Below are positions 19,128-63,980 of a DNA stretch of 64,000 nt, piece by piece (positions within the stretch are counted from its first letter, which is position 1; the number at the start of each line of letters is the position of its first letter). A program made the position numbers and the translations under genes. Under the pieces are notes generated by a model. It saw only the letters and a program-made list of their open reading frames with translations. It ran no database searches and was not told the origin of the DNA. This stretch comes from Bacilli bacterium. Lineage in GTDB: Bacteria; Bacillota_I; Bacilli_A; RF39; UBA660. Location: the NCBI GenBank assembly GCA_017472015.1, contig JAFURC010000049.1, positions 22,220 through 86,219 of the forward strand, written 5' to 3'.

Positions 19128-19202
19128 GTCCTCATAGTATAACGGATAGTACAAATCCCTCCTAAGGATTAAATGTAGGTTCGATTCCTACTGGGGACGC
19201 CA
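19128..19202 (+). tRNA. tRNA-Arg (anticodon CCU)
   Basis: Hand-folded cloverleaf: acceptor GTCCTCA/TGGGGAC, D stem GTAT/GTAC, anticodon stem AATCC/GGATT with loop CTCCTAA, T arm GTAGG-TTCGATT-CCTAC, encoded CCA. Confidence 0.9.
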
Positions 19203-19203
19203 T
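19185..19203 (+). repeat. attL core (TTCCTACTGGGGACGCCAT), the 3' end of tRNA-Arg
   Basis: Identical to 54528-54546. Confidence 0.85.
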
Positions 19204-19278: not shown

Positions 19279-20466
19279 TTATTTTTTTAATTTATTTATA
19301 ACATCAATAGTGTGTTTTTTCTTATCAGGAAACATGTGGTAATAAGTTCTTTCAACTTCTGTTGGAGTGTCTCCAATTCTTTCTGCAACTTCATATACAT
19401 CACAACCTAAATAGATAAGCAAAGATACATGACTATGTCTAAATCCATGTGGAGTTATTTTTTTAACTTTAGCATTATTGATATATTCTTCTAGTTTTCT
19501 TCTAAAAGTTGTTTTAGCAAAAAATCTAACATTACCAAATATAAAGAAGTTATTGTTAAATCCATATATTTTTTCTTCAATTTCTTTATGTTTTTGTAAC
19601 AGCATAATTAACTGATCATCTAAATTTACTATTCTAAATGAGTTTTTAGTTTTAGGATCGGTTATAATATAATCTTTTCCCTCTATCACTTTTAATTTTT
19701 TTTTATTGGCTTCTTCAATCATAGGCTTAAAGTCTTTTTTTTCAAATTTTGTAGTTAAAGTTTTGTTGATGCTTATCGTTTTTCTTTCAAAGTTAATATC
19801 ATTCCAATTTAAAGCATTAAATTCTCCGAAACGTAATCCTGTATAGTAAAGAAAGTTAAACATCAAATAATAAACGTCATTATCTACTACTTCAATGAAT
19901 TTTTGAAATTCTTCATAAGTCCAAAAATTCTTTTCACTATCCCTTGTGTCGCTACTTTTTTCAACTTTTTGTTTAATAATTTTTGAAGTAACTTTTCTAT
20001 CAAAATCATAATTGTTTTCAGCATATTCTAAAATTTCTTTCATTATCGAAATGATTCTATTTTTTTCGTCTAATCCAATGTTAGTTAAACCCAAAATATA
20101 ATTGTTCCATTTTGTGATAATATTGATTTTTATACTATGTAATTTATAGTCTTTAAAATAACTTAATATATATTTATTAGCCGTTAATTTTCTTGAGTAG
20201 AATGTTGAAGATTTTATAAAACTTTTTTTATATATCAACCATCCATTATATACATCTGCAAAAGAAATACTAATGTCCGAAATATCTTTTTTCGATACAG
20301 TTGTTAAAAACTCTCTTTCAGCATTCTTAGCTTCACTAGAAGTTAAAAACATTTTAGATACTTTTTGTTTTCTATTACCATACATATCGGTATAGTAGCA
20401 TTTATAATAATAATGCCTACCATCTTTAGTCCATTTATTTTTATTTTTTTCATTGTAAACTGCCAT
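19279..20466 (-). CDS. int: Tyrosine integrase
   Basis: HGFRHSHVSLL and ERTYYHM catalytic motifs; GGAGG RBS 8 nt before ATG at 20466 (track start 20481 is TTG); adjacent to attL. Confidence 0.9.
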   Translation of the reverse strand: MAVYNEKNKNKWTKDGRHYYYKCYYTDMYGNRKQKVSKMFLTSSEAKNAEREFLTTVSKKDISDISISFADVYNGWLIYKKSFIKSSTFYSRKLTANKYILSYFKDYKLHSIKINIITKWNNYILGLTNIGLDEKNRIISIMKEILEYAENNYDFDRKVTSKIIKQKVEKSSDTRDSEKNFWTYEEFQKFIEVVDNDVYYLMFNFLYYTGLRFGEFNALNWNDINFERKTISINKTLTTKFEKKDFKPMIEEANKKKLKVIEGKDYIITDPKTKNSFRIVNLDDQLIMLLQKHKEIEEKIYGFNNNFFIFGNVRFFAKTTFRRKLEEYINNAKVKKITPHGFRHSHVSLLIYLGCDVYEVAERIGDTPTEVERTYYHMFPDKKKHTIDVINKLKK

Positions 20467-20484
20467 AAATTTTACCTCCAATTA

Positions 20485-20890: not shown

Positions 20891-21277
20891 TCATTCAATT
20901 CCTACTACATACTTATTATAATACTTGTTTTTTCTTTTATTTTCCAATTTTGTTTGTTTAACAGGGAAAAGTGTTTTCATTTTTAATTCTCTTCCAGGTT
21001 CAACCTTTACTCTTATAGTAATTCCTAATTCATCAAAAAATTTATAATACTCAAGTGTATCTTTTGCTTTAACATAGAAAACTTCATCAGGATTTGAAAT
21101 TATATAATCAAGATTTGTCATAACATAATAAAAAGATTCTTTAGAAGGAAATTCGTCCATATGCTTTTTACAATGTCTTTTATCATTATCATATAAAACA
21201 ATAGGTTTATTAGAATGTTCAGGTATATTATTATCTAGTGCTATTTTTTTACTAACTCGTCCTAATATTTGTTTCAT
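20891..21277 (-). CDS. PBECR-like (phage Barnase/EndoU/colicin-E5/RelE-type) nuclease-fold protein, 128 aa
   Basis: GAGAGG RBS before ATG 21277; IVLYDNDKRHCKKHMDEF...LDYIISNPDEVFYV...ITIRVKVEPG...KTLFPV pattern recalled from PBECR families; the track's N-terminal extension covers a terminator hairpin. Confidence 0.45.
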   Translation of the reverse strand: MKQILGRVSKKIALDNNIPEHSNKPIVLYDNDKRHCKKHMDEFPSKESFYYVMTNLDYIISNPDEVFYVKAKDTLEYYKFFDELGITIRVKVEPGRELKMKTLFPVKQTKLENKRKNKYYNKYVVGIE

Positions 21278-21290
21278 ATGTTTACCTCTC

Positions 21291-21317
21291 AAAAAGAAAG
21301 CCTGCAATAATGCAGGC
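21291..21317 (-). terminator. Terminator/attenuator hairpin immediately upstream of the PBECR RBS
   Basis: Minus strand reads GCCTGC-attatt-GCAGGC followed by TTTCTTTTT. Confidence 0.5.
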
Positions 21318-21491
21318 ATTGAATAATTAAGCCAGGCACAACTCTGGCATCCCATCGAATTTAAAAAATTCTACACTTAAGATATTTCTATCCGTAATAG
21401 TTAGTGACTTTCTACCTTTAGTTATTCAATTTAAGAATATCCATAGATATTCTATTAATATTATGTAATCGCCTTACTATAATATACATAA

Positions 21492-22668: not shown

Positions 22669-23025
22669 CTACTTATCATTTTTCAAAAATTCTTTATTAG
22701 CATTAACGAACTTCATTAATCTATCTAATTCTTCATCCGTTAAGTCTTCATCGTTTTCCATAAAACCAGATTTTTGAAGTATTTTTCTTAATATAGCTAA
22801 TTCCTCTGTTTCAGACATAGTTCTTTCATTTCCTATTAAAAAATCCACTGACACATCCAACAGTTTCGCCATTTCATAAACTACTTCGATTTTAGGTACA
22901 ATTAAATTATTTATATATCTTGAAAGTGTGGCTTCAGTTATTTCTAATTTATCAGCAAATTCTTTTTGACTGATATTTTTATTTTCAAGTAACGATTTTA
23001 GTCTAGCACCGAAATCCTTTCTCAT
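22669..23025 (-). CDS. CI-like repressor (XRE-family HTH)
   Basis: GGAGTG RBS before ATG 23025; ISQKEFADKLEITEATLSRYINN; divergent from the cro-like gene. Confidence 0.8.
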   Translation of the reverse strand: MRKDFGARLKSLLENKNISQKEFADKLEITEATLSRYINNLIVPKIEVVYEMAKLLDVSVDFLIGNERTMSETEELAILRKILQKSGFMENDEDLTDEELDRLMKFVNANKEFLKNDK

Positions 23026-23038
23026 ATTTATCACTCCT

Positions 23039-23060
23039 AATTGCAATAAATATAACATTA
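23039..23060. promoter_or_regulatory. Operator-like site O1 (AATTGCAATAAATATAACATTA)
   Basis: Near-identical to O3. Confidence 0.45.
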
Positions 23061-29759: not shown

Positions 29760-29959
29760 ATAAGGAAGAATATAAAGTAATGGAAGAAATAAAAAGATTA
29801 GTTGATGAAATGTTAGCAACTATTAGAAGAAAAGAAAGTGATATTAAGGTATTACAAGCAGAAATAGAACAATTATATGTGTTTATTAATAATGTTGAAC
29901 ATATAGGCGAATTAGAAAGTTATAGATTGGAAAGGTTAAAGGATAGTGATATTAAATGA
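29756..29959 (+). CDS. Hypothetical protein ending LKDSDIK
   Basis: GGGGGTG RBS before ATG 29756. Confidence 0.5.
   Translation: MNKEEYKVMEEIKRLVDEMLATIRRKESDIKVLQAEIEQLYVFINNVEHIGELESYRLERLKDSDIK
29936..29955 (+). repeat. Gene-junction repeat copy 1 (TTAAAGGATAGTGATATTAA)
   Basis: Identical 20-mer at 30079 and 30348. Confidence 0.9.
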
Positions 29960-30102
29960 ATATGGAAGATACAGAAATTCAAATTATTTCATCAAAAAGT
30001 GCTTTAGATTTAAGTGAAATATTTGAAAATAGTAATAATATAGAGGGATTTAAAGAAAATGTAAAAGAAATAGAAGAATTAAAGGATAGTGATATTAAGT
30101 GA
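29956..30102 (+). CDS. Candidate 48-aa ORF ending LKDSDIK
   Basis: ATGA overlap upstream and GTGA overlap downstream; fills an otherwise empty gap; below the track cut-off. Confidence 0.4.
   Translation: MNMEDTEIQIISSKSALDLSEIFENSNNIEGFKENVKEIEELKDSDIK
30079..30098 (+). repeat. Gene-junction repeat copy 2
   Basis: Identical 20-mer. Confidence 0.9.
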
Positions 30103-30371
30103 AAGTAGAAAAAATATTTAATGAGTTAGGATTTAAAAAAGTAGATGGTTATACAGGAATTATGTATATAAAAGAAACTTTTGAAAATTTTGAATTAATA
30201 GGTAAAATGGCAAAAAGAATTTTTGTTCATTTTGTAGATAACAAAGTTAATGTTTCAAAAAGTTTTTTTATAGGTGCAGGAACTGATGAAGGAATTGATA
30301 TGGAACTATTAAAAGCCATAAATAAACAATGTGAAGAACTAGGATGGTTAAAGGATAGTGATATTAAATAA
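30099..30371 (+). CDS. Hypothetical protein ending LKDSDIK
   Basis: GTG start within the junction repeat. Confidence 0.5.
   Translation: MKVEKIFNELGFKKVDGYTGIMYIKETFENFELIGKMAKRIFVHFVDNKVNVSKSFFIGAGTDEGIDMELLKAINKQCEELGWLKDSDIK
30348..30367 (+). repeat. Gene-junction repeat copy 3
   Basis: Identical 20-mer. Confidence 0.9.
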
Positions 30372-30372
30372 T

Positions 30373-30819
30373 ATGAGTGAAGAGAAAAAACTAAGAGTTA
30401 GAGAAAATGCTAAAAGATATTATCATAAAAATAAAGAAAAAATTTTAAAAAGACAAAAAGAATATGCTAAAAAAAGATATAGGGAAGATGAAAAATTTAG
30501 AAACAAAATCAAAGAAAAAAATAAAAATTATGTTATAAACAATCCAGAAAAAGCAAGAGAAATAAAAAGAAAATCACAATATAAATATATTAACAAAAAA
30601 AGACTAAGTGGCGAATTGCCATTAACTCAAAAAATGTTAATAGATAATTTACAACAAGAAAACCAACAACTAAAAGATAGAATTGATAAAGCAATCGAAT
30701 ATATAGAAAAATGTAATCCTGATGTTGATTTACATAACATGTTCTTAAATGAAAATTATATATCAAATTATGGTGCATGTGAATTATTAGAAATATTAAA
30801 AGGTGATAAAGATGAGTGA
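30373..30819 (+). CDS. Hypothetical basic repeat protein
   Basis: K/R-rich repeats (YYHKNKEKILKRQKEYAKKRY...); shares the ENxQLKxRIDKA module with 31169..31423. Confidence 0.5.
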   Translation: MSEEKKLRVRENAKRYYHKNKEKILKRQKEYAKKRYREDEKFRNKIKEKNKNYVINNPEKAREIKRKSQYKYINKKRLSGELPLTQKMLIDNLQQENQQLKDRIDKAIEYIEKCNPDVDLHNMFLNENYISNYGACELLEILKGDKDE

Positions 30820-30973
30820 AGAAGGAATAATTAAAATTCTTATAACAGATGGTTCAATTAGTTATGAAATAAAACTTCATAATTGGAGTGTAAATAGCAA
30901 TACTAGAGAATATTTGATTGAAAAAGCAACTGAATATATAAATGAGATTTTTGAAAGAGGTAAAGATGAATAA
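30812..30973 (+). CDS. Candidate 53-aa ORF
   Basis: ATG within GGTGATAAAGATGAG; fills a gap; below the track cut-off. Confidence 0.4.
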   Translation: MSEEGIIKILITDGSISYEIKLHNWSVNSNTREYLIEKATEYINEIFERGKDE

Positions 30974-31166
30974 AGAAGAATTAGAAAAAATATTTGATTG
31001 GTTAGAAGAAAATATGAATATGAGGAATTGGTTTGATTTTAAATTAACTGATAGAAATCAAATAAGTGCATATTGGAAAAATACGAATAAAATATTTGCA
31101 GTATATTATGTAAATGTAATAAAGAATATTTTAAAAGGTGGTAATGGTGTTAAAGGTAGGAGTTAA
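30966..31166 (+). CDS. Hypothetical protein
   Basis: ATG 30966 after GAGG (the track start 30942 lies inside the previous ORF). Confidence 0.5.
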   Translation: MNKEELEKIFDWLEENMNMRNWFDFKLTDRNQISAYWKNTNKIFAVYYVNVIKNILKGGNGVKGRS

Positions 31167-31168
31167 AG

Positions 31169-31423
31169 ATGATAACCGAAAATGAAAGATTTATAGAAAT
31201 ACAAGGTATATTAGCAATGTCTGATATACATCCAGCGGATTGTATTAAGATTAATGATTTAATAATTGAATTATCGAAAGAAAACCGACAACTAAAATAT
31301 AGAATTGATAAGGCACTTAAACTAATAAAAGAAAATGTAAAAGATGAATACGGAATTATTGATGTTGCTGTTGTTTGGGAAATTGAAAGTGTATTAGAAG
31401 GAGGTAAAGTTGTTAAAGATTAA
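31169..31423 (+). CDS. Hypothetical protein
   Basis: AGGAG RBS. Confidence 0.55.
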   Translation: MITENERFIEIQGILAMSDIHPADCIKINDLIIELSKENRQLKYRIDKALKLIKENVKDEYGIIDVAVVWEIESVLEGGKVVKD

Positions 31424-31664
31424 AGATAATGTAGATTTAAAAGAATTAGAGAAATATGGGTTTGTATATTTTATAAATGGTTGTAGAACTTATGGTTATT
31501 CTTATGAAGCTTTAAATGGTGGTTATTCTATTATTATTGAAAAAAATAATGAGTTTCCAAACTATCCTAATAAAAGAAAAATACCTCTTAATATTCCACA
31601 AGATTTATTATACGACTTAATAAAAGATGGACTAGTAGAAAAGGTAGAAGATAAAGATGAATAA
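31410..31664 (+). CDS. Hypothetical protein, paralogue of 26842..27078
   Basis: TTG start after GGAGG; a 26-nt identical stretch is shared with the paralogue. Confidence 0.5.
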   Translation: MLKIKDNVDLKELEKYGFVYFINGCRTYGYSYEALNGGYSIIIEKNNEFPNYPNKRKIPLNIPQDLLYDLIKDGLVEKVEDKDE

Positions 31665-31914
31665 AGAAGATTATTTCAAATATTATATTCAAGGTTCAGA
31701 TCATTATTTGATACCAAAAGATATATTTGATGAGTTATTTGATGAAATGATTAATTGGAAAAATGAAAGTAAACAATCAAAAAAAGTTATTTATGAATTG
31801 GAAAAATGGTTAAAAAGTTTTACAACCGAAGAATTTAATTATAATTTTTTAGTAGTAAGAGTAAAAGATATTTTTGATAAAGTAAATGAATTAAAAGGAG
31901 TTATAGATGACTAA
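31657..31914 (+). CDS. Hypothetical protein
   Basis: Coupled ORF. Confidence 0.5.
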   Translation: MNKEDYFKYYIQGSDHYLIPKDIFDELFDEMINWKNESKQSKKVIYELEKWLKSFTTEEFNYNFLVVRVKDIFDKVNELKGVIDD

Positions 31915-32035
31915 AGAAGAATTAATTAACTTTATTTACTATTTAGAAGATAAAGTTGAAGAATGTTATAAAAAAGAAGTTAGAAAAGCAGTTGAACGAG
32001 TTGTAAAGGAGATAGAAAAATATGAAAGTAAGTAA
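31907..32035 (+). CDS. Candidate 42-aa ORF
   Basis: ATG after AAAGGAG; fills a gap; below the track cut-off. Confidence 0.35.
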   Translation: MTKEELINFIYYLEDKVEECYKKEVRKAVERVVKEIEKYESK

Positions 32036-32367: not shown

Positions 32368-32790
32368 ATGGAGGTAATAGTGTATAAAGATTTAAAAGAT
32401 ATGCTTGAAGATAAAAAAATACTTGAAGAATTGGTTAAAGGTTTAGAAGAAACAATTAAATATAAAATTCAAAAAGAACTTGGATTACATAGTACAACTT
32501 TTTCTGAGTTAAAAGTAGAAACCATGAATGTAATTGATGATAAATTTGCAAGAGTATTTGCTAAACTGGAATCGTTAGATAAGAAAAGAGAATTAAGGCA
32601 AGGTGAATTAGATATTATAAACCATACATTAGATAAAATTGAGACAATGATAGAAAAAATGTCAGGTAAAGAGAAAAAAGTATTTAGATGTAGGTATTAT
32701 TGGGGATTATCAGTTAATCAAACTGCTGAAAGATTAGGGTATAGTCCTGATAGAGTAAAACAAATTACAAGAAATTTGTTTGAAAAGTGA
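32368..32790 (+). CDS. Sigma-70 region-4-like late transcription regulator (ArpU/RinA-type)
   Basis: C-terminal KKVFRCRYYWGLSVNQTAERLGYSPDRVKQITRN; last gene before the packaging module; alternative GTG start at 32380. Confidence 0.6.
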   Translation: MEVIVYKDLKDMLEDKKILEELVKGLEETIKYKIQKELGLHSTTFSELKVETMNVIDDKFARVFAKLESLDKKRELRQGELDIINHTLDKIETMIEKMSGKEKKVFRCRYYWGLSVNQTAERLGYSPDRVKQITRNLFEK

Positions 32791-33073
32791 AAGATTACAC
32801 TTTTATTACACCCCCTATGTGGTATATTTGATATGATGAAATCATTATATAGATTTTATCCTTCTTACACTAGTTAATTGCTAGTGTACTGAATAGTATA
32901 GGCGAATGTCGAAACGATATATTATTTAGTACAATATCACTTAGGCTTCTTTCATAACAAAACATACTAACTATTAAAGTTAGTATACTGATTATATCGG
33001 TGAAAGCTATAGTTTAACTATAATGAGTAGATATGATTGGTATAGTACTTTTAATAATATATAAATCACCTCT

Positions 33074-33098
33074 AAGAACTAGAAATAGTTCTTTTATA
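33074..33098 (+). terminator. Intrinsic terminator just upstream of the phage tRNA
   Basis: AAGAACTA/TAGTTCTT stem, loop GAAA, T-rich tail. Confidence 0.5.
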
Positions 33099-33099
33099 T

Positions 33100-33174
33100 T
33101 GTCTCGTAGCCAAAAGGTAAGGCATAAGGCTTTGAACCTTAGATGTATTAGTTCGAATCTAATCGAGACAACCA
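33100..33174 (+). tRNA. Phage-encoded tRNA-Gln (anticodon UUG)
   Basis: Hand-folded cloverleaf: acceptor TGTCTCG/CGAGACA (U1-A72), D arm GCC-AAAAGGTAA-GGC, anticodon stem TAAGG/CCTTA with loop CTTTGAA, T arm ATTAG-TTCGAAT-CTAAT, encoded CCA. Confidence 0.85.
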
Positions 33175-33189
33175 ATAATAGAGATAATT

Positions 33190-51781: not shown

Positions 51782-51993
51782 TGAATAATAAAATTAAAGA
51801 TAAAATTGCTAAATTAATAGATTTAAAATCTATAATAACTTTAACTTTGATAATTACTTTAGAAATTTTAATAGTAAAAGGAACAGCTCTAAATAGTGAT
51901 TTATTCCTTTTGTTTTCGAATATACTGACAATGGTGATTACTTATTTTTTCACAAAAAAATCTAATAATGAAAGGAGTGATAGTAATGAGTAA
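51781..51993 (+). CDS. Holin
   Basis: Two TM segments and a charged C-terminus; directly upstream of the lysin. Confidence 0.6.
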   Translation: MNNKIKDKIAKLIDLKSIITLTLIITLEILIVKGTALNSDLFLLFSNILTMVITYFFTKKSNNERSDSNE

Positions 51994-52840
51994 AAATGGT
52001 AAATTAATATTTAAGAATTTCGATCCAGTAGTGACTAGTGCATTTGGTTATAGAATTAATCCAATAACAAAAAAAAAACAATTCCATGCAGGAGTTGATT
52101 ATGGAACAAATGGAAAAAAATTACCTCAATATGCTCTTGAAGATGGTTATGTAACAGGTTGTGGAAAAGATAGTACAGGTGCTTTATTCGTTTATGTAAA
52201 ATATCCTAGACTTGGTAAAACTGCAATACATTACCATTTAGACAGTTATAAAGTTGCTAACAATCAAAAAGTAAATGCTAATACTATAATTGGTTATACA
52301 GGAACAACAGGTAATTCAACAGGAATACATCTTCATTTTGGTTGGTTTCCAACAGAGGATAGATACAAAGCATGGGATAAGAAAAGATGGGAAGATTTTG
52401 AAAAATACGAGTTTCCAAAAGTAGAAAATAAATCTAATACATTAAAATACAAAATAGGAGATACTGTTAAAATAAATGCAGTTTATGTATCAAGTACAAG
52501 CAATAAAAAAGTTAATCCAGCAATAACAACAGGAAAAATTACAAGAATTGTTGTAGGTGCTAGAAATCCATATTTACTTGAAAATGGCAATATTGGTTGG
52601 GTAAATAATGATTGCATTGTAAATTCTAATGGATATATTCAAATTAATACAAAAGATGGTGTATGGTGTAGAACAGGTGGTTATGGCTTTAAATATCCTA
52701 AATATAAAGTAATTCCATATCAAACTAAATGTGAATTACTTGCTAAAAATATAGGCTATGCTAATGGATATAATTGGGATAAAGTTATTTATGAAAATAG
52801 AGAAGTTTATTTGCCTAATACTTGGAATAAATATTTGTAA
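51986..52840 (+). CDS. Endolysin: M23 peptidase plus SH3-type wall-binding domains
   Basis: GGAG RBS before ATG 51986; HAGVDY and GIHLHFG metal-binding motifs. Confidence 0.8.
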   Translation: MSKNGKLIFKNFDPVVTSAFGYRINPITKKKQFHAGVDYGTNGKKLPQYALEDGYVTGCGKDSTGALFVYVKYPRLGKTAIHYHLDSYKVANNQKVNANTIIGYTGTTGNSTGIHLHFGWFPTEDRYKAWDKKRWEDFEKYEFPKVENKSNTLKYKIGDTVKINAVYVSSTSNKKVNPAITTGKITRIVVGARNPYLLENGNIGWVNNDCIVNSNGYIQINTKDGVWCRTGGYGFKYPKYKVIPYQTKCELLAKNIGYANGYNWDKVIYENREVYLPNTWNKYL

Positions 52841-52911
52841 TTTATTTTAGGATTCTCACGAGCGTTTTTATTTGTCTTTTGCATTTTAGACGTTAAAGAA
52901 AAATGATGAAA

Positions 52912-52940
52912 AGAGAGTACCCAAATTACTCTCTTTTTTT
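52912..52940 (+). terminator. Terminator closing the lysis operon
   Basis: AGAGAGTA/TACTCTCT stem followed by T6. Confidence 0.7.
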
Positions 52941-52962
52941 GCATTTATTTGGGAGGTGCAAT

Positions 52963-53517
52963 ATGCAAGAAATTTGGAAAGATATAAAAGGATATGAAGG
53001 ATTATATAAAGCAAGTAATTTAGGAAGAATTAAAAGTATGCCTAGACACGGAACACATGTAAGAGAAGAACATATTTTAAAACAAAACGTAAATCGTAAA
53101 GGATATTCAATAGTTGGGCTTACTAAAAATAGTAAAACATCAACTATAACAGTTCATAGGTTGGTAGCAAATGCTTTTATTCCAAATCCTAATAATTTGC
53201 CTCAAGTTGATCATATTAATGATAACAAAAAAGACAATAGTATAAATAATCTTCAATGGATAACTAATGAAGATAATATGAAAAAGGCATGGTTGACCGG
53301 TGCGCGAAGTATAGAAAAAACATACAAAAGAGGTAAGGAAAATTGTCGTGCTAAAATAGTTAATCAGTATGATTTGAAAAATAATTATATAAGAACTTGG
53401 TATTGTATAAGAGATATAGAAAAAGAATTAGGATTTGACAATCGTAACATAAGTGCTTGTTGTAGAAATAAAAGACCAACTGCCTATGGATATAAATGGA
53501 AGTATGTTGATTCGTAG
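52963..53517 (+). CDS. HNH homing-type endonuclease (NUMOD4 plus HNH_3-like)
   Basis: GGGAGG RBS; EIWKDIKGYEGLYKASNLGRI; VHRLVANAF...QVDHINDNKKDNSINNLQW. Confidence 0.75.
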   Translation: MQEIWKDIKGYEGLYKASNLGRIKSMPRHGTHVREEHILKQNVNRKGYSIVGLTKNSKTSTITVHRLVANAFIPNPNNLPQVDHINDNKKDNSINNLQWITNEDNMKKAWLTGARSIEKTYKRGKENCRAKIVNQYDLKNNYIRTWYCIRDIEKELGFDNRNISACCRNKRPTAYGYKWKYVDS

Positions 53518-53525
53518 AATAATAA

Positions 53526-53566
53526 TAGAGGTAGGTATGTTTAATAGCATATTTACCTCTTTTTTT
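53526..53566 (+). terminator. Intrinsic terminator
   Basis: AGAGGTA/TACCTCT stem with inner TATG/CATA pairs, followed by T8. Confidence 0.65.
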
Positions 53567-53572
53567 TATTGT

Positions 53573-53600
53573 TTTCGACAAAATTCGACAAAATTCGACA
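53573..53600 (+). promoter_or_regulatory. Three phased Spo0A-box sequences (TTCGACA x3, reverse complement of TGTCGAA)
   Basis: TTCGACA at 53573, 53584 and 53594; each reads TTTGTCGAA on the minus strand. Confidence 0.55.
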
Positions 53601-53608
53601 AAGGAATT

Positions 53609-53617
53609 TGATATAAT
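53609..53617 (+). promoter_or_regulatory. Extended -10 element TGATATAAT without a clear -35
   Basis: Direct reading; 0A boxes occupy the -35 and upstream region. Confidence 0.45.
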
Positions 53618-53643
53618 ATCGGCAATCAAAGGGGGAATATTGA

Positions 53644-53802
53644 TTGAAATTAAGTAATGAACAATTAGAAAGGTTTACTGAAATCTTTGAGATTAAAGTT
53701 AAATCAGTGATTCTAATTGAAAAGAAAAATGTAATTACAATTGTAATTAATTCTGTAATTATATTTGATGTCAAAAAAGATCTTGTAAAAGATTTGTTTT
53801 AA
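53644..53802 (+). CDS. Candidate 52-aa ORF (MKLSNEQLERFTEIFEIKVKSVILIEKKNVITIVINSVIIFDVKKDLVKDLF)
   Basis: GGGGGA RBS 7 nt before TTG; below the track cut-off; its 3' end overlaps the stop of the convergent gene by 4 nt. Confidence 0.4.
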   Translation: MKLSNEQLERFTEIFEIKVKSVILIEKKNVITIVINSVIIFDVKKDLVKDLF

Positions 53803-54401
53803 TCTAAATAATTTCTTTTAAAAATTTCAACGAAATCCAAACTAGGATAAACCTCGTTGAATTTTTTTTGTGCAATTCTATGATGCTTATCTTGAAGAAT
53901 GATATCATTATGTATCTTCATATGACAATCAAAGCAAACAGGAATAACAAGACCATACTTGATAGAATTAAGTCTATTTTTGCCAAAGCAGACTTCGTGG
54001 ATATGTTCTTTCTTTGCACCACATACAAAACAATGATTCATATCATCAGTTATTATACTAGTTCTGTTTCGCTCCATTTTGGCAAGTTTGTTGCTTTTCT
54101 TTGACATTTTAGGAGTTTTTTTCTCATACTTTGCACTATTTTTTGAAAATTTAGTGTTTTTTTCCATTTTAGGGTGGACTTTTTCTTTTATAACCGGACT
54201 TTTGTTTATTTGATGGTTATTTGATACCATTTTACCGACGTCGGGAATTTGTTCAATTGCATTATTAATATTCTTAAATGTGCAGTTATATTCTTTATAT
54301 ATGCAATTAGAACAATCTTTAAACGTTATTATTTTATTTGTTAGTTTACATTCTAGTTTTCTATTTAATTTTTGTTTTAAATATTTACAATTATTATTCA
54401 T
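53799..54401 (-). CDS. Cys-rich Zn-finger / HNH-like protein with NinG-like architecture
   Basis: AAGAGGT RBS; N-terminal Cys cluster, K-rich linker, C-terminal CFVCGAKKEHIHEVCFGKNR...PVCFDCHMKIH; 200 aa. Confidence 0.5.
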   Translation of the reverse strand: MNNNCKYLKQKLNRKLECKLTNKIITFKDCSNCIYKEYNCTFKNINNAIEQIPDVGKMVSNNHQINKSPVIKEKVHPKMEKNTKFSKNSAKYEKKTPKMSKKSNKLAKMERNRTSIITDDMNHCFVCGAKKEHIHEVCFGKNRLNSIKYGLVIPVCFDCHMKIHNDIILQDKHHRIAQKKFNEVYPSLDFVEIFKRNYLD

Positions 54402-54403
54402 TT

Positions 54404-54424
54404 TTTACCTCTTAATTACATCTT
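54404..54424 (+). repeat. TTACCTCTTA and TTACATCTTA (11-bp phasing), candidate arm-type Int sites
   Basis: Matches the pair at 19254-19274; the first copy also serves as the RBS complement of 53799..54401. Confidence 0.3.
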
Positions 54425-54527
54425 ATTTTTATAAATTAAGGTAAATCGAGGTAATTAATTTTAGATATTATTGGCATAAAACAAGGTATTTTAGTAATAG
54501 TTAGGTGTAATTAAAGTGTTTAATCAT

Positions 54528-54546
54528 TTCCTACTGGGGACGCCAT
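54528..54546 (+). repeat. attR core (TTCCTACTGGGGACGCCAT)
   Basis: Identical to 19185-19203. Confidence 0.85.
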
Positions 54547-54554
54547 TTAAATAT

Positions 54555-54586
54555 AGTTATTTTGCTTGAAATAACTTCTTTTTTTT
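54555..54586 (+). terminator. Original host terminator of tRNA-Arg
   Basis: AGTTATTT/AAATAACT stem followed by a T-run. Confidence 0.6.
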
Positions 54587-54617
54587 AGTAAAATAAAATT
54601 AGAAAATAGGAGTGGTT

Positions 54618-58029: not shown

Positions 58030-58118
58030 AAGTCACCTCTAAAACAATTATAATATAAATTTACTTTAAACAAAATATAAATACGAAAAAAATCATTTTA
58101 ATAACAAAATTAACTATC

Positions 58119-58147
58119 AAAAAATGCTAAATTATTTGTCGAATAAA
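58119..58147 (+). repeat. 29-bp intergenic repeat copy A containing TTTGTCGAA
   Basis: AAAAAATGCTA-N6-TTGTCGAATAAA; about 23/29 identical to copy B. Confidence 0.7.
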
Positions 58148-58282
58148 TTTACTTCCTTGAAATATAAGATAAATAAAATATGTAAAATTCTTTATAAAAA
58201 AATTTAAAATAAGAAAATAAATTTACATCTATTATTATAAGTGTTATACTAAATTTGTTTTTATAAGACATATTATGCTTTT

Positions 58283-58311
58283 AAAAAATGCTATATAATT
58301 TGTCGAATAAA
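58283..58311 (+). repeat. 29-bp intergenic repeat copy B containing TATAAT and TTTGTCGAA
   Basis: Same architecture as copy A, 164 bp downstream. Confidence 0.7.
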
Positions 58312-58323
58312 CTTGGAGGCTAT

Positions 58324-58533
58324 ATGAAAAAGAATTATAAATTATTTTATTTACTTTCAATTATTTTAGTAATTATATTTTTAGTAATACTTCTTATAGA
58401 TTATATTAATTATGATATTACAACCTCATTTCCTTTTTATGCAACGATAATATTTAGAATTATTCAATTATTAATACCTAGTTTAATTTCATTTATAATA
58501 GGCTTTATCTTAAATAAGAAAAATAAAAAATAG
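58324..58533 (+). CDS. Small membrane protein
   Basis: GGAGG RBS before ATG 58324; two TM segments. Confidence 0.55.
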   Translation: MKKNYKLFYLLSIILVIIFLVILLIDYINYDITTSFPFYATIIFRIIQLLIPSLISFIIGFILNKKNKK

Positions 58534-62315: not shown

Positions 62316-62371
62316 TACTTTTTTGTTATAAAAAAATAAATTATTCATACACTTAAGTGAATGGAGGATAT

Positions 62372-63094
62372 ATGAAAAAAATTGTACCTTTTACAAAAGA
62401 TTTAATGTTTAAAACCAAGATAGGGGAGATTACATCAATTGCTCTTGATAATACACTTACTTTAGATTTACAAAATGTATCTGGGGAATTTATTATTAGT
62501 GGAACTTATAAAATATTAGAAAGTAGTCAATTAGAAGAGGAGTTTAAATATAATATTCCAGTTGATATAACAATTGATTCTAAATATGAAACAAGTTCTT
62601 GTTCTATTAGTATTGATGATTTTTCTTATGAAATAATCAATGAAGAAAAATTAAAAGTTAATATAAGTGTTATGTTAGATGACTTGGATATTAAAGAAGA
62701 TAAAATCGAAAAAATAGAAGTAGTTTTACCAAATGAAGATTTAGAAAGAGAATTTAAGGGAGAAGAGGAAAATAGAGAAGATAGTGAATTTGAACTATTA
62801 GATAGTAGTATGGAAGAAGAATTGGAAAATTTAGTTTTAGAGAATAAAAAAATAGAGACTAAAAATCAAATGACATATCAAGAAAATAAACTTAATTTTC
62901 AAGAAAAATTATTAGAAAATGTGGAAAATGAAAAAGAATATTCAATTTATAGAGTATATACAGTTAAAGAAGATGATACACTAGATTTAATTTATGAAAA
63001 GTTTAATACAACTAAAGAAATATTAAGTGATTATAATGATCTTGATAATTTAGTAGTTGGTAGTAAAATAATTATTCCATCAGAAGATGAATAA
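62372..63094 (+). CDS. SpoVID-like sporulation protein with C-terminal LysM domain
   Basis: GGAGG RBS before ATG 62372; N-terminal VPFTKDLMFKTKIGEITSIALD; LysM YTVKEDDTLDLIYEKF...GSKIIIP. Confidence 0.5.
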   Translation: MKKIVPFTKDLMFKTKIGEITSIALDNTLTLDLQNVSGEFIISGTYKILESSQLEEEFKYNIPVDITIDSKYETSSCSISIDDFSYEIINEEKLKVNISVMLDDLDIKEDKIEKIEVVLPNEDLEREFKGEEENREDSEFELLDSSMEEELENLVLENKKIETKNQMTYQENKLNFQEKLLENVENEKEYSIYRVYTVKEDDTLDLIYEKFNTTKEILSDYNDLDNLVVGSKIIIPSEDE

Positions 63095-63980
63095 CTTAAA
63101 AAAAGCTTTAGATAATTTAAATTTAAAAATTAAATCTCTTAAATATATTAAAAATGCTTGTATAGTTGAAACCGATAAAGGCAAATTAGTTTATAAAGAA
63201 AATAGTAATAATTATGATATATATGAATATTTAAAAACAAGGGATTTTAATTATTTTCCAAGAACTTTAAATGATAAAAATGTTTCGTATGATTTATTAG
63301 AATTTGTTAATACTAATGATGTCCCCAAGGAACAAAAAATATCTGATTTAATCCATTTAAGTGGTATTTTACATAGAAAAACTTCTTTTAATAAAGAAAT
63401 TGATATGGATGAAGTTAAAGAAATATATGAAAATATTTTAAAAGAAGTTAATTTTTTAATGAATTATTATAGTGATTTAAATAATTATATTGATACGATT
63501 GTTTTTATGTCACCTAGTGAATATCTATTAGTTTCTAATATCGATGTAATTTATTATTTACTTAATTTTGTTAAAGTAGAAATTAATAATTGGTATAATT
63601 ATATTAAAAGTAAGAAAGTAATTCGTTATAGCATGATTCATAATAATTTAGATTTATCACATATTTTAGAATCAGATAGGAAATATTTAATTAGTTGGTC
63701 GAAATCAAAACTTGATATGCCAATAAATGATTTAATTAAATTATATCAAGATAATTATTATGATTTAGACTTAGAATATTTTATAAGAGAATATGAAATG
63801 GAAAATAAAATAGATGAATATGAATACTTATTTTTCTTAATAAAACTTGCAATTCCTAAGCGAATTGAGTTTACTAAAAATACATATGATGATTGTTATA
63901 AAATAAATGAATACCTAGTTTATCTTAAGAAAATTGCTTCATTAGTACAAAAATATGGACGAAAATACGAAAAAATTTGA
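63087..63980 (+). CDS. YsxE/CotS-family spore-coat kinase-like protein
   Basis: Follows the spoVID-like gene as in Bacillus; HNNLDLSHIL kinase-like motif. Confidence 0.45.
   Translation: MNNLKKALDNLNLKIKSLKYIKNACIVETDKGKLVYKENSNNYDIYEYLKTRDFNYFPRTLNDKNVSYDLLEFVNTNDVPKEQKISDLIHLSGILHRKTSFNKEIDMDEVKEIYENILKEVNFLMNYYSDLNNYIDTIVFMSPSEYLLVSNIDVIYYLLNFVKVEINNWYNYIKSKKVIRYSMIHNNLDLSHILESDRKYLISWSKSKLDMPINDLIKLYQDNYYDLDLEYFIREYEMENKIDEYEYLFFLIKLAIPKRIEFTKNTYDDCYKINEYLVYLKKIASLVQKYGRKYEKI

Follow-up and report, generated by a model that had tools for sequence, protein, structure and literature searches.

Tandem Spo0A-type boxes at the predicted promoter of a small accessory gene in a prophage of a Bacilli bacterium

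The phosphorylated form of the sporulation regulator Spo0A (Spo0A~P) binds in dimeric form to the 0A box, whose core in Bacillus subtilis is TGTCGAA; in the phages phi29 and Nf, the stretch that it protects consists of two such boxes 3 bp apart (PMC2731898). Both phages are lytic; their boxes repress early promoters and block late-promoter activation, and the genome is trapped in the spore, while a block of the replication origin by 0A boxes is found in phi29 only and not in Nf (PMC2731898). Spo0A of Clostridioides difficile has the same specificity and makes base contacts at G2, C4, and G5 (PMC3485338). At the chromosomal spoIIG promoter, an interaction between Spo0A and sigma is needed (as cited in PMC12090719), and the boxes there are weak (Baldus et al. 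1994, as cited in PMC3485338). Neither 0A boxes in phage genomes nor promoters activated by Spo0A are new in themselves. The locus described here lies in a stretch of 64,000 nucleotides from a Bacilli bacterium (contig JAFURC010000049.1 of assembly GCA_017472015.1; hereafter, the window) and comprises three tandem 0A boxes, an extended -10 element, and a 52-codon open reading frame (ORF) close to the right end of a prophage. It is best read as a self-contained prophage moron in which the -35 element of an extended -10 promoter is replaced by three 0A boxes, a moron being an autonomous prophage unit that is presumably expressed from the prophage. A probability of about 0.7 is assigned to a Spo0A-controlled promoter that drives a real small gene.

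The heptamer TTCGACA occurs three times, head-to-tail and with 3-bp spacers, in a strict 10-bp register (10/10), and every copy reads TTTGTCGAA on the minus strand. The resulting boxes, each TGTCGAA on the minus strand, occupy positions 53574-53580 (box 1, distal), 53584-53590 (box 2, middle), and 53594-53600 (box 3, promoter-proximal and perfect in the window), or approximately -50 to -44, -40 to -34, and -30 to -24 relative to a predicted transcription start at ∼53621-53625. A preliminary description of this DNA had recognized the three copies but placed the first of them one base too early, at 53573, and gave the phasing as 11 and 10 bp. Boxes 1 and 2 form a head-to-tail pair with a 3-bp spacer and a center near -42. 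A Spo0A target is expected to contain at least one match to the 7-bp core, and three perfect cores are present here; the head-to-tail arrangement with 3-bp separation that marks a dimer site is likewise found, with a perfect 10-bp period.

The extended -10 element TGATATAAT (53609-53617, plus strand, with the hexamer at 53612-53617) starts 8 nt past box 3. There is no -35 hexamer 16-18 bp upstream of this -10; the distance from the TCGACA of box 2 to TATAAT is 21 bp. In the B. subtilis spoIIE and spoIIG promoters, a -35-like hexamer lies 21-22 bp from the -10. A ribosome-binding site, AGGGGGA (53630-53636, plus strand), follows 7 nt ahead of the TTG start codon of the 52-aa gene (53644-53802, plus strand), the stop codon of which overlaps by 4 nt that of a convergent 200-aa gene for an HNH-like protein. 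Transcription is predicted to end at a hairpin (53826-53861, plus strand) and a run of eight U residues (53862-53869) located within the last codons of the convergent gene. The hairpin has a calculated folding energy of -12.8 kcal/mol (z = -3.15), and the terminator scan flags the 53826-53869 region on the minus strand as well. The unit is thus equipped with a promoter and a terminator of its own, and the predicted transcript is ∼245 nt long. On its upstream side, the unit (hereafter, the cassette) is insulated by an intrinsic terminator that the scan places at the end of the late/lysis operon on the plus strand (hairpin at 53527-53560 followed by a T-run, to 53569), 3' of a NUMOD4-HNH homing endonuclease gene and directly 5' of the box array; a hairpin and T-run are found at the equivalent position in the related locus L003. 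The preceding terminator, the -10 lacking a -35, the ribosome-binding site, the TTG-initiated ORF, and the 4-nt stop overlap had all been noted in the preliminary description and are present. A sigma-H promoter was considered on account of AAGGAATT between the boxes and the -10 but was rejected: no GAAT is placed as the sigma-H consensus demands, and homologues do not retain the motif.

When up to 3 mismatches were allowed, the triple pattern was found once in the window and in none of 100 dinucleotide-preserving shuffles. Single TTCGACA/TGTCGAA heptamers number 7 in the window against 2.7 expected, a mild enrichment only. Tandem Repeats Finder reports 53574-53602 as a perfect repeat of TTCGACAAAA in 2.9 copies, spacers included, and such perfection would also be expected if the array were a functionless 10-bp microsatellite, made by slippage, that contains the 0A heptamer by chance. 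A genome-wide triple-box scan did return long TGTCGAA-containing microsatellites, unrelated to the present locus, from GC-rich non-Firmicutes, in which Spo0A is not expected.

The comparative data contradict this explanation. Contigs were fetched by homology to the 52-aa protein alone, with the boxes ignored, and 23 distinct upstream regions were aligned. At each position of units 1 and 2, the TTCGACA base is kept in 19-23 of the 23 promoters. Unit 3 is less strictly kept and typically reads TATGACA or ATCGACA. Nearly all of the promoters have three units in 10-bp register, the exceptions being L203, with four, and L206, with two clear units. The gap between unit 3 and the -10, T(G/A)nTA(T/A)AAT, is 8 nt in most homologues; L203 and L206 are out of register, and L193 and L210 have gaps of 9-10 nt. 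The 3-nt spacers, by contrast, vary (aaa, aat, tat, att, aag, and aga). Because the spacers and the adjacent synonymous sites have diverged, the heptamers appear to have been maintained and not to be the product of recent slippage, and the distal boxes appear from the alignment to be under selection. Conservation of both ORF and promoter in relatives, on which the preliminary description had made its proposal depend, is therefore borne out. Given in addition the result of the shuffles and a distance to the -10 that is fixed across unrelated genes (see below), a chance origin is scarcely credible.

The same promoter type was found on other phage contigs. A scan for three perfect boxes returned contigs on which the boxes are followed by 8 nt, TGnTAnAAT, a ribosome-binding site, and then a gene of a second small-protein family, A3 (56-59 aa). 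Homology between A3 and the family of the 52-aa protein (A2) was considered and rejected (hhalign probability of 0.4%). The order in A3 loci is lysin, a small gene of 93-98 aa, boxes, and small ORF, with a convergent HNH-like gene and an integrase following in some; the unit lies after the lysis genes in L009, L017, L019/L090, and L214 and ahead of the integrase end in L007, L017, and L214. Locus L214, which was found by protein alone, reads TTCGACA-taa-TTCGACA-aat-aTCGACA, 8 nt, and then TGCTATAAT.

A search of other phages for tandem 0A boxes, as the preliminary description had suggested, was made in IMG/VR with the pattern TTCGACA-N3-TTCGACA-N18-TGnTAnAAT and yielded 89 stretches of viral contigs with the same two-box layout. 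Control patterns in which the boxes were inverted (N18), or kept in the orientation of the window but moved 5 bp further away (N23), yielded 0 stretches each. The number expected by chance for the N18 pattern is ∼0.1, a rough value that takes 30% G+C and assumes a collection of ∼1e11 bases. The contigs that contain the 80 two-box promoters (56 distinct sequences) have a G+C content of 23-39%, and the genes downstream belong to at least 18 unrelated, mostly small ORF families. These include a Zn-ribbon protein of 82-95 aa (23 contigs), a family without assigned function that is mostly 57-66 aa (14 contigs), XRE-type helix-turn-helix (HTH) proteins (5 contigs), and several membrane proteins. A further family, its members 48-60 aa long and marked by SQKLDKLI or a variant motif, is weakly Spo0E-like (L225, L289, L262, L285, L239, and L226), with a sub-threshold match to PF09388 (E = 2e-4; 21.6 bits, the cut-off being 23); if real, it would be a candidate negative-feedback device on Spo0A~P. 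Conservation in this wider set does not extend to the third unit, and the core of the promoter class therefore appears to be a two-box site at approximately -50 to -34, centered near -42, together with an extended -10.

Arrays of the same kind are also found at host genes. In five loci from metagenome-assembled genomes (MAGs) of Clostridia (L128, L093, L121, L107, and L094), three perfect phased boxes lie 117-190 bp upstream of spo0A. They fit the known autoregulation of spo0A (PMC12090719) and act as a positive control. A layout like that of the window, in which an extended -10 follows three perfect boxes at a constant interval, precedes comK (PF06338; E = 2e-46 for L029) in nine loci (L029, L049, L058, L083, L098, L100, L108, L144, and L146) and genes for membrane histidine kinases (HisKA and HATPase_c) in a further three (L027, L101, and L140), all from low-GC MAGs labeled "Bacilli," "Tenericutes," or "Mollicutes." In B. 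subtilis, comK is a direct target of Spo0A~P (PMC3297582). The arrangement implies that low-GC Bacilli lineages may possess a compact and very consensus-like Spo0A regulon. One such MAG (L071) has a triple-box promoter and also encodes a 256-aa Spo0A with an intact recognition helix, SRVERAIRHAIE, close relatives of which are annotated as Spo0A in "Bacilli bacterium" MAGs. In low-GC MAGs of this kind, Spo0A is common. The proposal in the preliminary description that Spo0A-type sites form part of the promoter of the small gene gains support from the conservation upstream of homologues, the specificity of orientation and spacing, and the presence of the same arrays at spo0A, comK, and kinase genes.

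The protein that reads the boxes might be other than host Spo0A, for instance a truncated phage Spo0A that consists of the DNA-binding domain only, or a similar response regulator. Truncated spo0A homologues are carried by gut phages (PMC10294663), and a different specificity could lie behind the TATGACA or TTCTACA units to which some of the homologous promoters have drifted. Neither a Spo0A nor a Spo0A_C homologue is encoded in the window, however, and a phage-encoded Spo0A there was rejected on this ground; the heptamer is the exact 0A core with the canonical 3-bp spacer, and the arrays at chromosomal spo0A, comK, and kinase genes argue for a host factor. The cassette is found both in phages with a tyrosine integrase (L186/187) and in a phage with a serine recombinase (L189), and hence the boxes are not integrase arm sites, an identity that was also rejected given the distance of ∼930 bp between the array and the att core. 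A reader other than host Spo0A is thus considered quite improbable.

If host Spo0A~P does bind, it could either activate or repress. For repression, the extended -10 would be constitutively active in the vegetative lysogen, and Spo0A~P bound across -50 to -24 would occlude RNA polymerase at sporulation, such that the small protein would be produced by growing cells and no longer from the onset of sporulation. An extended -10 as strong as TGATATAAT is able to work without a -35, box 3 sits between the -35 and -10 positions, and two host boxes in the window lie just 3' of -10-like elements; the 0A boxes of the phi29 family, moreover, repress (PMC2731898). Simple occlusion would nonetheless not predict the strict orientation and distance found in IMG/VR (89 versus 0 and 0), which are predicted by stereospecific activation, and the wider phage set keeps only the pair near -42 and not the proximal unit. 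In many homologues, the -10 is without a TG extension and is weaker, as in TAGTAAAAT, and would need an activator; the layout drives comK and sensor kinases, genes expected to be on under Spo0A~P. Because of the constraints on orientation and distance, the lack of a -35, the weaker TG-less -10 elements, and the retention in the class of only the -50/-40 pair, activation is favored: given a Spo0A-controlled promoter, it is about four times as likely as repression, which is regarded as unlikely.

The 52-codon ORF had been called untracked in the preliminary description, but a protein identical to its product is annotated as hypothetical in two GenBank MAGs labeled "Bacilli bacterium" (IJZ77_06255, MBQ8207048.1, and MBQ8473202.1). 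A search of 5.8 billion proteins gave 35 homologues with 67-100% identity, nearly all of 52-64 aa. Residues K2, L3, F11, F15, E16, I17, I23, I25, K27, N36, I40, and F41 are invariant in the family, and the ribosome-binding motif AAAGGGGGAA is kept among the homologues. The median dN/dS over 170 pairs was 0.17 (pairwise Nei-Gojobori; 19 coding sequences), with dS values of 0.5-1.4 for the pairs listed. AlphaFold2, run on the homologue alignment, gave a model with a pLDDT of 89 in which a helix (residues 5-15) is followed by three strands (22-26, 30-35, and 38-44) and a second helix (45-51); the model is compact and lacks a long hydrophobic helix, and the product is taken to be a small cytoplasmic protein. 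Because of the 35 homologues, the invariant residues, the dN/dS of 0.17, and the confident predicted fold, the ORF is considered on sequence grounds to be a real protein-coding gene under purifying selection.

The family was not assigned a function by similarity. The 52-aa protein has no match in Pfam at E ≤ 1 and none in PHROG, Foldseek searches of PDB and BFVD with the model gave nothing significant (best E ∼0.5-1.7), and when 1.84 billion representatives were searched exhaustively with a profile, the sole relatives returned were 20 small standalone proteins, with no informative fusion among them. Among GenBank phages, neither the 52-aa protein nor the A3 protein was matched, and a DNA search with 52850-54600 matched the homing endonuclease gene alone. 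The protein resembles the sporulation checkpoint peptide Sda in size and in its KLSxE-type N terminus, a likeness raised in the preliminary description, but differs from it in fold and family. The fold of Sda is a helical hairpin, whereas the model has three strands; with no Pfam match (PF08970-type) and no structural neighbors, membership in the Sda family was rejected. Identity as a Spo0E-like phosphatase was likewise rejected, with no match to PF09388, and a role as an excisionase or recombination directionality factor is unlikely, given the fold and the occurrence of the cassette with both tyrosine and serine recombinases.

The 4-nt stop overlap and the position of the terminator within the convergent gene raise the possibility that the unit is a functional RNA, with convergent transcription or the 71-nt antisense overlap controlling the HNH-like gene and the ORF being incidental; the overlap recurs in L017 and L188-190. 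The cassette and the HNH-like gene are, however, not obligately linked as far as the sequences indicate. Relatives in which the HNH-like protein is 90-91% identical (L001 and L002) have no cassette downstream, whereas L003, with a copy of 69% identity, has a complete cassette; among distant relatives on viral contigs, the cassette is absent downstream of the HNH-like gene in 31 of 31. Conversely, the cassette is kept without the convergent gene beside HTH repressors (L178-181) and with downstream genes on the same strand (L182-185), and the cassette-type unit of L214 likewise lacks it. Because the two occur independently, antisense control of the neighbor, which the preliminary description had entertained, is unlikely to be the core function of the unit. 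With the dN/dS of the ORF and its conserved ribosome-binding site also to be accounted for, a functional RNA is deemed very improbable. A type I toxin-antitoxin or antisense pair was rejected in view of the compact helix-strand-helix model and the dispensable convergent partner. With its own promoter and terminator, a position between phage modules, and separability from its neighbors, the unit has the characteristics of a moron.

The following sequence of events is proposed for this moron. At the transition to stationary phase and sporulation, Spo0A~P would accumulate and bind boxes 1 and 2 as a dimer centered near -42. In the manner of a class II activator, the dimer would substitute for the -35 contact and activate sigma-A RNA polymerase. 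The resulting ∼245-nt transcript would encode the 52-aa protein and stop at the hairpin-U8 within the 3' end of the convergent gene, such that the lysogen would produce the protein on the approach to the sporulation decision. The Spo0A regulon contains high- and low-threshold genes (Fujita et al. 2005, as cited in PMC12090719); by analogy, the consensus boxes would constitute a high-affinity site and the small gene an early-responding target. Box 3 is a weaker site in most of the relatives; its role may be to adjust the response or to limit it when Spo0A~P is high. From its position at -30 to -24, it could contribute either to cooperativity or to a shut-off at high Spo0A~P that would give a pulse of expression, and pulse-type expression has been proposed for comK (PMC3297582).

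Several observations weigh against an array that is read by Spo0A and activates the small gene. That Spo0A binds, which way it regulates, where transcription starts, and what the protein may do are all inferred from DNA and protein sequences. A box 3 protomer, lying inside the promoter spacer, could conceivably hinder RNA polymerase and repress. The arrays upstream of spo0A are in the sense direction, opposite to the phage promoters relative to the gene, and orientation alone is therefore no proof of activation. Some homologous promoters contain no perfect box (TTCTACA, TATGACA, and TATGACA in L188-190), and those of L182-185 have only near-consensus units (TTCAACA, TGCGACA, and TTCAACA), although in phage Nf Spo0A still gives a footprint on pairs of TGTtGAA (PMC2731898). 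The perfect 10-bp tandem of the window could partly reflect recent slippage or homogenization. No spo0A gene of the window's own genome lies within the 64 kb, and the search for Spo0A matched related "Bacilli bacterium" MAGs, none with the IJZ77 locus tag.

Evidence on the host comes from the flank of the prophage, where an overlapping gene pair (62357-63980) encodes SpoVID-like and YsxE-like proteins. The presence of host spore genes in the window, reported in the preliminary description, is confirmed, with the reservation, also to be counted against the interpretation above, that the matches are at or below curated cut-offs: the SpoVID-like protein scores 28.5 bits for LysM and 26.7 bits for SPOCS_spoVID-N (cut-off of 27.1), and the YsxE-like protein matches TIGR02904 with E = 9e-21, below the curated cut-off. 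The order of the two genes is taken to match that of the spoVID-ysxE locus of B. subtilis. The pair supports, but does not prove, that the host, an uncultured, low-GC gut member of the Bacilli, is an endospore-former. In L002 (1388-2865), a prophage end with the 90%-identical HNH-like gene is adjacent to host spoIIGA (Peptidase_U4) and a sigma-E-like gene, a setting that again points to spore-forming hosts for this phage group.

The prophage of the window, of ∼35 kb, is bounded by attL (19185-19203), which is the 3' end of a tRNA-Arg(CCT) gene, and attR (54528-54546), the core of which, TTCCTACTGGGGACGCCAT, is an exact 19-nt repeat of attL. From left to right, it contains genes for a tyrosine integrase (19279-20481, minus strand) and an HTH repressor-like protein (22669-23058, minus strand), a plus-strand block of replication and structural genes, an M23-peptidase lysin gene (51968-52840), a homing endonuclease gene with NUMOD4, HNH_3, and NUMOD1 domains (52903-53517) between the lysin gene and the cassette, and, beyond the cassette, the convergent HNH-like gene (53799-54401, minus strand; 200 aa, with a Zn finger; phrog_7566 and HNH phrog_22514). 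The same prophage end is present in GCA_017465035.1. The cassette lies past the end of the late operon and ∼0.9 kb from attR. This slot is a classical place for accessory moron genes and not for a lysis-lysogeny switch; the repressor region lies far away, at ∼22.6-24.6 kb. The notion of a prophage switch, put forward in the preliminary description, is thus not sustained, and neither is that of phi29-style silencing of lytic development: boxes in phi29 lie over early and late promoters or the origin, whereas the early and repressor regions of this temperate phage contain no box cluster.

Relatives of the convergent HNH-like protein match PF16784 and PF06147. Across 25 relatives, its C terminus (FNEVYPxLDFVEIF) is the most conserved part, and the last ∼20 codons of its gene (53799-53870) form the hairpin of the bidirectional terminator, which suggests a dual constraint from protein and RNA structure. 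In L009, L017, L019/L090, and L214, a 93-98-aa HHxPP protein with no Pfam match replaces the homing endonuclease.

Outside the array, an isolated perfect 0A box (32907-32913), within chance expectation, lies in a 400-nt intergenic region (32791-33189) that follows a phrog_36 transcriptional-regulator gene (32368-32790) and is upstream of a tRNA-Gln gene and structural and late genes. By analogy with phi29, this box could affect late transcription. The tRNA-Gln(TTG) is carried by the prophage at 33100-33174. Two copies of a 37-nt element (58114-58150 and 58278-58314) each contain a perfect 0A box (58137 and 58301; ATTTGTCGAATAAA) directly 3' of a -10-like TGCTA(A/T)AT, a repressor-like position. 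The second copy abuts a small ORF, hydrophobic by eye, that starts at 58325, and may be a host promoter repressed by Spo0A. In the lysogeny module, a gene beside the integrase gene (20891-21355, minus strand) encodes a PBECR3/PBECR2 nuclease domain (barnase/EndoU/colicin-like) and may be a toxin or defense gene. The early region (29900-31950) contains families of direct repeats of 34-75 nt with 73-95% identity that span the starts of consecutive small ORFs, which suggests a series of paralogous small genes.

Reports of 0A boxes in phages come mainly from the lytic phi29 family; the present locus points to a different use of the same host signal. The layout in which two distal boxes stand at a set distance from an extended -10 is found on ∼80 uncultured phage contigs ahead of many unrelated small genes, and phages with this layout probably sense the preparation of the host for sporulation. 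More tentatively, it is possible, if doubtful at present, that a Spo0A-sensing promoter class is common to temperate phages whose hosts are spore-formers of gut and rumen, and that they use it as a plug-in module to express small effectors just when the host commits itself to dormancy. In that event, the 52-aa, 56-59-aa, Spo0E-like, Zn-ribbon, and membrane effectors would influence either the decision to sporulate or the maintenance of the phage during it, one example being negative feedback on Spo0A~P that would delay sporulation of the lysogen. If the interpretation is correct, the layout offers a simple sequence signature for phage genes expressed at sporulation entry and a source of small proteins to be considered as possible modulators of dormancy in gut Firmicutes. 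Sensing of, or influence on, the sporulation decision by prophages would also become testable, helped by the DNA specificity that the Spo0A proteins of C. difficile and B. subtilis share. In the literature searched, neither a temperate-phage accessory cassette with a Spo0A-site promoter nor the recurrence of a Spo0A-type promoter before many different small phage genes was found.

Compared with known systems, the locus shares with the spoIIG and spoIIE promoters of B. subtilis the replacement of a properly spaced -35 by 0A boxes, with activation there proceeding through contact with sigma-A. It differs from them in that its boxes are perfect, three in number, and in 10-bp register, its -10 is extended, and its gene is phage-borne. 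Phages of spore-formers are also known to carry sporulation regulators of their own, namely truncated spo0A, sigF/sigG-like sigma factors, and Rap-Phr (PMC10294663); that study does not mention this promoter class, and the terms "promoter" and "binding site" each have 0 occurrences in it. In both cases, phages sense or interfere with the sporulation pathway, but the direction differs: those regulators are encoded by the phage and act on the host, whereas the present promoter appears to be a phage sequence under the control of a host regulator. A related concept is seen in phages of Alphaproteobacteria, some promoters of which are described as containing boxes for CtrA, a host master developmental regulator (PMC9437464); as far as that description goes, the regulator, the host phylum, and the lifestyle are different. 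As in phi29 and Nf, consensus TGTCGAA is present on phage DNA in pairs separated by 3 bp and would couple phage expression to the sporulation state (PMC2731898), but the phage here is temperate and integrated, the boxes belong to the promoter of a single accessory gene, and their geometry points to activation. Like other morons, the cassette is a promoter-gene-terminator unit at the end of the late operon beside the attachment site; it stands apart from them in a promoter that appears to be wired to a host developmental regulator and is of a type reused for at least 18 unrelated cargo genes.

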